Below, piece by piece: positions 5,395 to 32,831 of a DNA stretch of 43,723 nt (position 1 is the first letter of the stretch; each line of letters begins with the position of its first letter). Both the position numbers and the translations under genes were made by a program. Location of the stretch: the IMG/VR virus record IMGVR_UViG_3300030376_004869, positions 1 through 43,723 of that record. One strand, 5' to 3'. The notes beneath the pieces are model-generated. The model ran no database searches and had not been told where the DNA came from. It saw nothing but the letters and a program-made list of their open reading frames with translations. The stretch is from a virus. Its lineage: Duplodnaviria > Caudoviricetes.

Positions 5395-6267
5395 TTAAAA
5401 TAATCCGAATTTCTTTTTAGGTTTTTTAGGTTGTAAGGCTGATATTGGTACGACGTCGTGGCACATCACATATAGCTTGGATTTAGGATGCAGGGTAAAG
5501 CCCTTTTGCATAATTTCTGCACATTTGATTGCACGAGTCAACTCGTAGTCCAGCCTCATTTTTTCTTCTACTCTTTTGGCAATACGTTTGCATTGCTTTA
5601 AAGCTTCTCTATCTAGGGGAACCATAAAATTTAATTGCATCCCCCAGTTCTCTCCCTTGGTATAAGAGTCTTGTCTTAAAGAACCAGTATCCTCATTGAA
5701 TGATCTAGGTTCTGTATGATTACCCATATAGAAAGGTGAGAACGTCATTGTGCTGCCATTACAGCTCACATTAGGACCAAAATATTGTCTACTTTGTGAT
5801 CCGTTATTCTGGAATTGCACTGCTGAATTGGTGACATTTCCGGTCGCTGCCGCTATTGGATTCGAGGTGTTATTTACCTCTGGCTCATTAGCCAACACCG
5901 GGCTTCCTATTGCGAGAAGACAGAGAGCGATGTAGTAGTTGCGTTTGTTGTTACATTTCTTGTAACGTCGATCTGCTCGATCACCCCTGCAGCTCTGGTC
6001 ACTGTTTCTAGTTGAAATGCGTTGCCAGCTGTGTGAATATCGAAGACTGTATCTGTAGCAGATATTCCTCCAGATGTTGCTGAGGTTGCAGTAACGTTGG
6101 ATCCTGTCCAACTTTGCAGAGCACCACCGAACACCTGTGTTTGCAATGTCTCCGTCACTGTCTGAGTTGTGGTGGTCGTCGAATTCATCGATCCTTGGGT
6201 GAACTGGGGAGTAATAGTGTTTGCTCTCGCTACCGTGGGTGACAACAGAGCTAAGAGTATTAGCCAT
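5395..6267 (-). CDS. Exported/membrane-anchored Cys-containing protein with uncertain start; frame overlaps the upstream gene
   Basis: The part from YYIALCLLAIGSPVLA-NEPEV onward (~5950 down to 5395) is protein-like, with a signal/TM segment. The nearest in-frame ATG is at 6267. Confidence 0.7.
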   Translation of the reverse strand: MANTLSSVVTHGSESKHYYSPVHPRIDEFDDHHNSDSDGDIANTGVRWCSAKLDRIQRYCNLSNIWRNICYRYSLRYSHSWQRISTRNSDQSCRGDRADRRYKKCNNKRNYYIALCLLAIGSPVLANEPEVNNTSNPIAAATGNVTNSAVQFQNNGSQSRQYFGPNVSCNGSTMTFSPFYMGNHTEPRSFNEDTGSLRQDSYTKGENWGMQLNFMVPLDREALKQCKRIAKRVEEKMRLDYELTRAIKCAEIMQKGFTLHPKSKLYVMCHDVVPISALQPKKPKKKFGLF

Positions 6268-6275
6268 TTCTTCAT
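5907..6275 (-). CDS. Exported Thr-rich protein with signal peptide (122 aa)
   Basis: MKKWLILLALLSPTVARA signal peptide; PQFTQGSMNS...SLSVFSQ family recalled from cyanophages; ATGA overlap with the upstream gene. Confidence 0.85.
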   Translation of the reverse strand: MKKWLILLALLSPTVARANTITPQFTQGSMNSTTTTTQTVTETLQTQVFGGALQSWTGSNVTATSATSGGISATDTVFDIHTAGNAFQLETVTRAAGVIEQIDVTRNVTTNATTTSLSVFSQ

Positions 6276-6591
6276 GTTTCTTTTTTCTTTGCCATTGGAC
6301 AATCAACAGTTTTACCGTTGTTTCTATTTCCGTTATTTGTCTGTAAACCAAAAGAATAAAGGGCACTGCCAAAGATACTTGCCACGAAGGTTATATCTGT
6401 GTTTTGTGTCTTCTTAATCATTGGTATTTCGACATAATTCAGAGTTATGACTCTCAAATAAAGCCCGACCAAACCACAACACCAAGACGTACGAAAGTAC
6501 CAAGCACTTGAATATGATGCTCAGTATCTTCAGCAGCGTCTTTTATTTTGGTGAGTAAGTTCTTTTTCGGGCTTTCCTCTTTTCCTTCCAT
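6272..6591 (-). pseudogene. Two-TM membrane protein gene interrupted by an apparent 8-bp insertion (6449-6456)
   Basis: ATG 6591 gives MEGKEESP...RLGVVVWSGFI-stop; another frame continues ITLNYVEIP...DITFVASIFGSALYSFGL. Removing TGAGAGTC restores a 103-aa ORF. Confidence 0.7.
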
Positions 6592-31089: not shown

Positions 31090-32352
31090 TTAATGTACGT
31101 CAGCCCACGTATGTCCGTTCTTTGCTTCTGCTTCTATAGGACAACGTAAGTTGTAATATTCACCAGCTTGTGTAGCAGAAAGACACAATAAAAATTGGAG
31201 GTCTACTATGTCTTCTGCAGCACATTCATACTGCAATTCATCGTGAATAAATGCAAGTTGATGAGCTGATTTTGGTAGGTGTTGATTAGCTATATATAGC
31301 CAACGCTTTGCGATAATTCCAGCCGATCCTTGAAGCAAATAATTTAAACTTTTATGAGTACTATCGACTAAGATTTTACGTCCGTCTATAGCTCGTATAT
31401 AGCCTCTCTGACCTGCCTTTTTAATCGCCTTAAGAAGTTCCGATAATCCGTCAATAGCATCGACATAGGCTTTACGTACCTCCTTACCTTTTTCTTTAGC
31501 ATCTTTTTCGGATAATGTTTTATCGACTGATAGACCTATTTTTTGGTCTCCAGCCCCATACAAGAAGGCATAAGTAACTGTTTTAACTTGTCTTCGGGTA
31601 ATCCCAATTTTGTCAGCATTTTGTTGGTGTATGTCTCCGTTGACCAATACATCCGCATATTTCCCGTCATCATATCTGCCCAAATAGTGAGCAAGCATAC
31701 GTAACTCAATACCGCTAAGGTCAGCACCAACCATTCGTAAATTTGGACTAGCAGTAAATAAACGTCTGAATCTCTCATCACTAGGTACCTGAGCAAGGTT
31801 TGGATTTCGATGGCTTGCGCGATGTGTGGCACATCCAACTGAACAATGGTGGTGAATTCTACTAGATGTCGTACATAGCTTCTGCCATGCGTTCACGCCT
31901 TCGGATATCATCCCAAGCTGCTTCGTCAGATCCAAGAGTCTCGCAAAATTCAGAGCTATATCCGTCCCAAATTCTTTGAGTGTAATTTCGTTGATTACTG
32001 GTTTTCCGGTAGCCGTCATTGATGACGGTACCCATCCGTAATGTGTTTTGAGAATCCATGCAATGTGATCCCGTGAGGTGGGATTAAAATCTTTTAATCG
32101 GGTGAATGTGGCGTTCTTGATGTATCCACTGGTTTTGTTGTCTCTTCGAGGAGTAAATTCGTGTCCTTTAACGAAAGGGTGCCTGTCTCGAAGTAATTGA
32201 GTAGTTTCTTCCAGCTCTCGTCTGAGAGTTGATTCAAGTTCCCGTGCAGCTTTTTCATCAAAGTACCATCCATGAATTTCTTGTTGTAAAAGTATTTTTG
32301 CGACTTCATGCTCTAGCGAGCACCAGTCAGGTAAGGGTGGAAGTGCTTGCAT
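31090..32352 (-). CDS. DNA polymerase family A, polymerase domain (separate ORF or -1 frameshift continuation)
   Basis: DLSGIELR (motif A), RRQVKTVTYAFLYG (motif B), IHDE (motif C). The protein-like part begins about LPDWCSLEH; an ATG (MQAL) lies at 32352. Confidence 0.93.
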   Translation of the reverse strand: MQALPPLPDWCSLEHEVAKILLQQEIHGWYFDEKAARELESTLRRELEETTQLLRDRHPFVKGHEFTPRRDNKTSGYIKNATFTRLKDFNPTSRDHIAWILKTHYGWVPSSMTATGKPVINEITLKEFGTDIALNFARLLDLTKQLGMISEGVNAWQKLCTTSSRIHHHCSVGCATHRASHRNPNLAQVPSDERFRRLFTASPNLRMVGADLSGIELRMLAHYLGRYDDGKYADVLVNGDIHQQNADKIGITRRQVKTVTYAFLYGAGDQKIGLSVDKTLSEKDAKEKGKEVRKAYVDAIDGLSELLKAIKKAGQRGYIRAIDGRKILVDSTHKSLNYLLQGSAGIIAKRWLYIANQHLPKSAHQLAFIHDELQYECAAEDIVDLQFLLCLSATQAGEYYNLRCPIEAEAKNGHTWADVH

Positions 32353-32831
32353 AATTTTGTTGTTATTCGTACGTCTTGCTCGCAATAATCTTGCATCTCT
32401 TGACTCCACTCTTTCCAGTCAGTTGTTTTAGAAAAATTTCCTTTATATTCGCCTAAACGATAACCGTATGACTCCAAGCTATGCCGTCCATACTGTTGTA
32501 AAGGCATAAATTTCCAATTATGTTTATCATCTATATCTCTTATATTGGGATGAAATAGACGTGATAAAAGTAGAGTGTCTATTATCTGGGCTGCAGGTTT
32601 GAACCAATCATAAATAGACTGTGCAACTGGTATATCAAAATCAATAACGTTATGACCAGCAATACTATCGGCAAGCATTAAATTTTGTAAGCCTGTATGT
32701 ATTGGATAGTGATTATCTTTCTCGTTGTTATACGTTTCGTATTGATCAGTTTCAGTGTCGTAAGTAACTAAACAATGAATACGATCTGCTATACCTCTTA
32801 ACCCATTTGTTTCTAAATCAAATATCAACAT
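32313..32831 (-). CDS. DNA polymerase 3'-5' exonuclease domain
   Basis: FDLET (ExoI), GHNVIDFD (ExoII), YCEQDV (ExoIII); overlaps the polymerase-domain ORF in another frame. Confidence 0.93.
   Translation of the reverse strand: MLIFDLETNGLRGIADRIHCLVTYDTETDQYETYNNEKDNHYPIHTGLQNLMLADSIAGHNVIDFDIPVAQSIYDWFKPAAQIIDTLLLSRLFHPNIRDIDDKHNWKFMPLQQYGRHSLESYGYRLGEYKGNFSKTTDWKEWSQEMQDYCEQDVRITTKLCKHFHPYLTGAR

Follow-up and report, generated by a model that had tools for sequence, protein, structure and literature searches.

The locus considered here raises the question of why a second reading frame should stay free of stop codons through the whole of another gene. It lies in a complete T7-like cyanophage record, analysed over its full 43,723 nt (the window), which encodes RNA polymerase, psbA, hli and talC and in which two genes, A and B, are placed between the tail fibre and small terminase genes. 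Gene A belongs to DUF6322 (phrog_650) and is a homologue of P-SSP7 gp44 and myovirus gp166 (T4-GC 236), while gene B belongs to phrog_848/1755 and is a homologue of P-SSP7 gp45 and myovirus gp165 (T4-GC 235); tested against each other, A and B are not homologous. The B family matched 439 phage records, 430 of them named Synechococcus, Prochlorococcus, Cyanophage or Tiamatvirus. The features of the locus are:

6272..6591, minus strand: upstream DUF6450 membrane-protein gene (P-SSP7 gp43-like), whose stop overlaps the ATG of A.
5907..6275, minus strand: gene A, 122 aa, with a predicted signal peptide and a Thr-rich long beta-hairpin.
5395..6267, minus strand: gene B at its proposed full length of 290 aa, in the -1 frame of A.
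6265..6267, minus strand: proposed B start ATG, made by Lys3 (AAA) and Trp4 (TGG) of A and separated by 4 nt from the TGA that ends the upstream gene.
6109..6111, minus strand: second possible B start, a TTG on an internal Trp of A, which is CTG or otherwise absent in 23 of the 121 relatives whose B start is assigned to Trp4 (the Trp4 class).
5938..6267, minus strand: leader (n-region) of B, 110 codons lying entirely on A, stop-free and nearly unconstrained in amino acids.
5890..5937, minus strand: hydrophobic and cleavage region of the predicted B signal peptide, shared with the final codons of A and its stop.
5395..5889, minus strand: predicted mature B, 164 aa, with a conserved N-terminal segment, an amphipathic beta-hairpin, a 35-residue helix and four invariant Cys.

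The DUF6450 gene is itself split in the window into two reading frames (6591-6454 and 6457-6272) by a TTGA stop/start overlap. At this site in the two-TM gene an insertion of 5 or 8 nt is found in 6 of 163 scored loci, in three sequence variants (111 further loci were not scorable and were left out of the 163), and the gene seems to have undergone a real fission, giving two peptides with one TM each. Elsewhere in the window the DNA polymerase (32831-31090, minus strand) matches phrog_17 in two ORFs, 32313-32831 and 31090-32409, for which a split gene, a frameshift or an assembly error are the alternatives.

The B frame runs uninterrupted from 6390 to the stop codon at 5395 and spans all of gene A, bearing out the initial annotation, which had followed it back through A to the ATG at 6267. 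That annotation had also counted about 13 codons of A that could synonymously end in T and so create a -1 stop; our recount gives 14, none of which ends in T. Under a null built on genome codon usage the frame stayed open in 13 of 200,000 replicates and under the codon usage of non-overlapped A homologues in 6 of 20,000, while the within-gene synonymous shuffle, a test proposed at the outset, gave 2,109 of 200,000 (~1%); the range over the genome-usage and shuffle nulls is 6.5e-5 to 1e-2. The longest -1 open run among 20 other window genes is 74 codons. A chance origin of the open frame is rejected by these three nulls, and an assembly artefact is ruled out since the arrangement recurs in 294 loci. 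Upstream of mature B the frame holds four canonical starts (ATG 6267, TTG 6111, GTG 5898 and TTG 5895), of which the last two fall within the c-region and would lose the signal if used. The TTG at 6111 had been missed in the initial annotation.

Comparison with relatives suggests what keeps the frame open: B very probably takes its start from a Trp codon of A and, in the window, begins at ATG 6267. Initiation there, 8 nt inside A, would yield a predicted 290-aa precursor. A set of 365 loci was reduced to 294 distinct A-B pairs, which were scored after removal of 36 duplicates, 34 truncated or unscorable loci and one non-adjacent pair, the window being represented by a locus (L001) identical to it across A. 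Relative to A, the B frame is -1 in 289 of the 294 loci and +1 in the other 5, and in 294/294 an ATG, GTG or TTG lies in the B frame inside A, past the last stop. In the -1 loci this start falls on a Trp codon of A without exception (289/289), compared with ~69/289 expected under synonymous recoding of A. For a start in the -1 frame, a codon of A has to begin with TG; since Cys is missing from mature A in all 294 loci, only Trp can supply it. The starts fall on Trp4 (121 loci), on an internal Trp near codon 55 (16), 112 nt before the end of A (66), 64-67 nt before it (71) or at other myovirus sites (15), counts that come from related loci, the first 80 of which were found by search patterns biased to Trp4.

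The position of the start and the extent of the open frame go together. In loci whose frame is closed within A (n = 174), the median distance from the last stop to the first start is 12 nt. With an ATG at position +9 of A, the position equivalent to 6267, 120 loci are open and 10 closed; without it, 1 is open and 158 are closed. Independent pairs on the tree (n = 9) change in the same direction in 5.9 cases on average and in the opposite direction in 0 (median p 0.03, range 0.008-0.125), on a quick tree built on mature B in which A/B recombination may inflate the transition count. In 23 of the 121 Trp4-class loci the +9 ATG is the sole canonical start. Codon 2 of A varies (AAG 52, AAA 52, others 16), whereas codon 3 ends in A in 120/120, and the base preceding the used Trp codon is A in 235/289 loci, compared with 36/118 for Trp codons upstream of the last stop. 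B thus appears to use Trp codons for which the preceding base is A, G or T, and initiation would take place there.

The comparison indicates that stops have been purged by selection from the used Trp codon onward. Sites at which a synonymous T would create a stop end in T in 0 of 2,185 cases in Trp4-class loci and in ~41% upstream of the start in closed lineages, where the zero follows from the definition of the Trp4 class but the size of that class does not. Another 0/359 is found in 62 Trp4-class loci that also carry an internal ATG and yet are open from +9. The position used would depend on the Trp codons at hand: lineages with a usable Trp 64-112 nt before the end of A would have a brief overlap, and those without one would overlap from an internal Trp or from Trp4. 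Among the deep-overlap loci (n = 137), the last 120 nt of A hold no start in 122, only a TTG in 10 and an ATG or GTG in 5. There is no room for a start closer still, because the hydrophobic signal of B is encoded by the conserved last codons of A. Between lineages the start would hop among Trp codons, with the frame closing just upstream of it. The view in the initial annotation that selection maintains the second frame gains support from the Trp-based starts and stop avoidance in relatives, as does, from the positions of those starts, its option of a fully overlapped N-terminal extension. The near-complete overlap is real and selected, and it is a case of overlapping genes rather than recoding.

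The five +1-frame loci (L085 2432-2962; L318; L341-L343) have their own start and an ordinary short signal peptide with an n-region of 5-7 residues, indicating that the leader is dispensable. More distant B proteins in databases, seen as protein records only, have long extensions or none. In one IMG/VR locus (L267 796-1458, minus strand) an opposite-strand 220-codon ORF, the start of which we take from its motif to be GIY-YIG-like, sits between A and B; past this ORF, B seems to have acquired an ATG and a signal peptide anew.

Selection on the B leader is confined to very little. The amino-acid difference is 48% in the leader versus 18.5% in mature B, and the fourfold-site difference is 0.50 over the leader and 0.31 over the last 20 codons (1,849 non-independent Trp4-class pairs), compared with 0.59 in mature B (400 of those pairs), so that synonymous variation across the overlap is reduced only in the last 20 codons. 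Leader length spans 5 to 114 residues across classes, and selection for a basic leader is not seen (net charge +5 versus a null mean of +10). This drift, together with the variable length and a charge not above the null, argues that selection acts on stops and on the signal and not on the leader sequence. The dual coding first suggested is thus replaced by an extension that drifts almost neutrally, and the synonymous-constraint comparison proposed with it gave little difference between leader and mature B. A hydrophobic stretch with a median uncharged run of 17 residues follows the leader, and an AxA site stands after it in 271/294 loci, compared with 21/294 in a control window by the same pattern test; a Tat motif is found in 0/294 loci and a lipobox in 2/294. 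These n-, h- and c-regions and the AxA pattern point to B as a predicted Sec/SPase I exported protein, whose near-neutral 110-residue leader would probably be removed along with the signal peptide. A long n-region before a normal hydrophobic and cleavage region is also a feature of the extended signal peptides found in autotransporters and serine-rich adhesins. Their extensions are conserved and functional, unlike the B leader, which is set by the other frame.

How the two starts would be served is suggested by the ATGA overlap between the upstream gene and A: ribosomes finishing the upstream gene there may re-initiate either at the ATG of A or at that of B 8 nt further on. The upstream stop overlaps the ATG of A in 113/121 Trp4 loci. 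The ATGA overlap is, however, found in all podovirus classes and so does not explain the choice of Trp4. No RNA structure was detected at the double start (z 0.43), and no promoter or terminator was found on the coding strand.

Other routes into the open frame have to be set against initiation at Trp4. A programmed -1 frameshift inside A, in which ribosomes entering from A would keep the frame open and make an A-B fusion, fits the -1 geometry of 289/294 loci, and four database proteins do join part of A to B. The open stretch, however, begins at differing places and in every case contains a Trp-based start, B has a canonical start of its own in all 294 loci, an XXXYYYZ heptamer lies within the open stretch in just 26/289, and the five +1 loci again have their own start. 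Of 7,997 candidates scored, 8 proved to be longer relatives of A; four of them are A-B fusions, and in two others OMP1, an A paralogue, is fused to A. Each of these six is a single-contig record with a junction of its own, and the four A-B fusions compare with 3,591 A relatives of normal length; these fused records look like sequence errors. The frameshift, raised as an option in the initial annotation, is accordingly highly improbable. Initiation at a non-canonical ATC or ATA, or at TTG 6111, with the long open frame as a relic or by-product, is very unlikely. In-frame ATC and ATT codons and the TTG do exist, the latter could also serve in the window, and a short n-region is enough in other lineages, but such a start leaves the upstream stop avoidance (none in Trp4-class loci versus ~41% in closed ones) unexplained, and the 23 Trp4-class loci noted above have no other canonical start. 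A non-canonical start, also suggested early on, loses its ground where a canonical one is available in every locus. Against the Trp4 rule itself stand the 10 closed loci with a +9 ATG, and the 62 loci in which Trp4 is kept over internal ATGs find no explanation in the overlap.

In the accessible part of the S-TIP37 infection proteome (PMC12695635), the B homologue STIP37_47 is represented by 9 peptides and 296 spectra, with 0 spectra at 1 h in 6/6 samples and, at 5 h, 25-30 in each wild-type sample, while 7/7 virion proteins checked have spectra at 1 h. The absence of B at 1 h, when virion proteins are present, suggests that it is probably not packaged, and the homologue is apparently an abundant late, non-virion protein. 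The database entry for B used there is a 117-aa fragment, so the peptides do not locate the start; in the S-TIP37 genome the B frame closes just before an ATG at A+159, the predicted B start there, and for P-SSP7 the predicted start is a GTG at A+251. Two metatranscriptome runs yielded short contigs only. A is not among the proteome rows listed in that source, and its tryptic peptides are long (24-48 residues). An unannotated membrane-protein-like frame precedes A in S-TIP37 (L367 1210-1410) and continues into the -1 frame of A, which may reflect a missed gene or an error in the sequence. A and B alike are predicted to undergo export and cleavage, and would be made late and left unpackaged.

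The predicted folds give an outline only. The A model is all beta, with a 24-residue two-strand hairpin and a small head (pLDDT 87, pTM 0.44), while the B model (pLDDT 77) combines a hairpin with a 35-residue helix at 94-128 and the four invariant Cys. PDB sequence searches with A and B gave nothing below E 0.18, and Foldseek and VIA gave no significant match to a solved structure for either. A weakly resembles pore stems, collar tubes and fibres (best Foldseek E 0.019; best VIA Z 4.2, rmsd 5.0 over 52 aligned residues), B gave no structural matches with these two programs, and an OEP match came from 1 of 47 family members (E 0.018). Five rows of the viral structure library fall under E 0.001, all unnamed or uncharacterised, and the ESM Atlas returned own-family clusters only. 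In outline the A hairpin and the B hairpin plus helix are like beta-pore stems (lysenin or aerolysin type), lower-collar tubes and TolC-type hairpin-plus-helix proteins, from which they differ in that no match is significant. In myoviruses the upstream OMP1 gene (e.g. L082 1572-2024, L088 1657-2103) is a paralogue of A (hhalign 96.8%), present in 73/294 loci but in none of the Trp4, Trp55 or 112-nt classes and in no podovirus locus. From their folds, A and B would most likely oligomerise as subunits of a beta-barrel or tube in the host envelope.

An alternative is raised by the late, non-virion expression of B, by the place of the pair next to a two-TM gene and flanked by the tail fibre and small terminase genes, and by the long helix predicted in B: A and B would form a spanin-like lysis pair with genuine dual coding, B being a type II membrane protein that stays uncleaved and has the leader as a working domain in the cytoplasm. 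The survey PMC6139136 lists P-SSP7, Syn33 and further marine cyanophages as lacking spanins and, in the part available, allows for other topologies. Two-component spanins are overlapped or embedded gene pairs, as are A and B. For the periplasmic coiled-coil helix of spanins, the comparison gives a predicted helix at 94-128 in B and an all-beta A. The o-spanin signature of a lipobox and lipoylated Cys is, however, lacking, with the near absence of a lipobox in B and no Cys in mature A (0/294), and the 17-residue uncharged run followed by AxA points by its pattern to cleavage rather than to the uncleaved anchor of an i-spanin. The leader diverges more than mature B in amino acids (48% versus 18.5%), with fourfold sites differing 0.50 versus 0.59; its charge does not exceed the null, and its length varies from 5 to 114 residues. 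Syn5 and P60, also listed as spanin-less in that survey, match neither A nor B: a first look found no candidate in either genome, and both controls matched. In the myovirus records read, the cassette sits among hsp20, hli, psbA or talC and not among annotated lysis genes. We regard the spanin-like pair as improbable. None of the 60 window proteins carries a lysis label among its best five PHROG rows. The hint of lysis in the initial annotation survives as a lead, against which stand the near absence of a lipobox, a predicted cleavable signal in place of an anchor, and the lack of a match in Syn5 or P60.

Envelope remodelling, such as a superinfection block or permeability, is the single role we favour, short of an even chance, followed by some other role and then by an aid to lysis. 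The accessible part of PMC9381782 describes Syn5 as a fast phage of clade A and S-TIP37 as a slower one of clade B; the lack of a match to A and B in the former and their presence in the latter fits, with the thin support of two genomes, a function in the upkeep or defence of the infected cell. Phage outer-membrane proteins are discussed as superinfection blocks in bioRxiv 2026.10.24.761521, the available part of which does not name DUF6322. A rather unlikely but specific possibility, offered as speculation, is that A and B, joined in myoviruses by the OMP1 paralogue, assemble into an envelope machine peculiar to cyanophages. This oligomeric beta-barrel or tube would replace spanins or exclude competing phages. 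Its subunit ratio would be set by two out-of-frame ATGs 8 nt apart competing for the same re-initiating ribosome, and B would be exported behind a 126-residue signal peptide from its partner's shadow frame.

Among known systems, the Rz/Rz1 spanins of lambda and the embedded type of T7, as far as described in the available part of PMC6139136, are likewise two late envelope proteins with an out-of-frame overlap and an often mis-annotated second start, at a similar genome position in T7-like phages. They differ in that B overlaps through a drifting leader and not through a functional domain, that A, a long beta-hairpin, and B have no lipobox or clear uncleaved anchor, and that the overlap depth hops between Trp codons. 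The nblA/exonuclease overlap of T7-like cyanophages, in the accessible part of PMC12695635, is also under-annotated and out-of-frame (up to 110 nt) and comes from the same phage group, whereas the A/B overlap reaches 361 nt, covers nearly all of the upstream gene and carries a signal-peptide leader. In the window two overlapping ORFs downstream of the exonuclease (30450-30124 and 30211-29924, minus strand) match phrog_27006 and a nucleotide kinase; their position matches the nblA and gp1.7 location in the available part of that source, making these candidate identities by position. T4-GC 235/237 is a conserved hypothetical cluster in 15/16 cyanomyovirus genomes and comprises the same families, B being T4-GC 235 and the upstream OMP1-type paralogue T4-GC 237; the account of it in section 27 of PMC3037559 gives no function and mentions neither overlap nor start. 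The A/B overlap is not described in the literature searched, subscription papers lying mostly outside the search scope, and B is annotated without a signal peptide in P-SSP7, S-TIP37, S-H38 and P-RSP2.

The proposed B start would bring out a widespread pair of predicted exported proteins in phages for which passage across the outer membrane has yet to be explained. The pair also offers a natural case of how a long overlap may originate, with a start tied to the Trp codons of the partner gene, hopping between them, and with stops as the sole target of selection. As an engineerable phage, S-TIP37 would allow both the start and the function to be tested.
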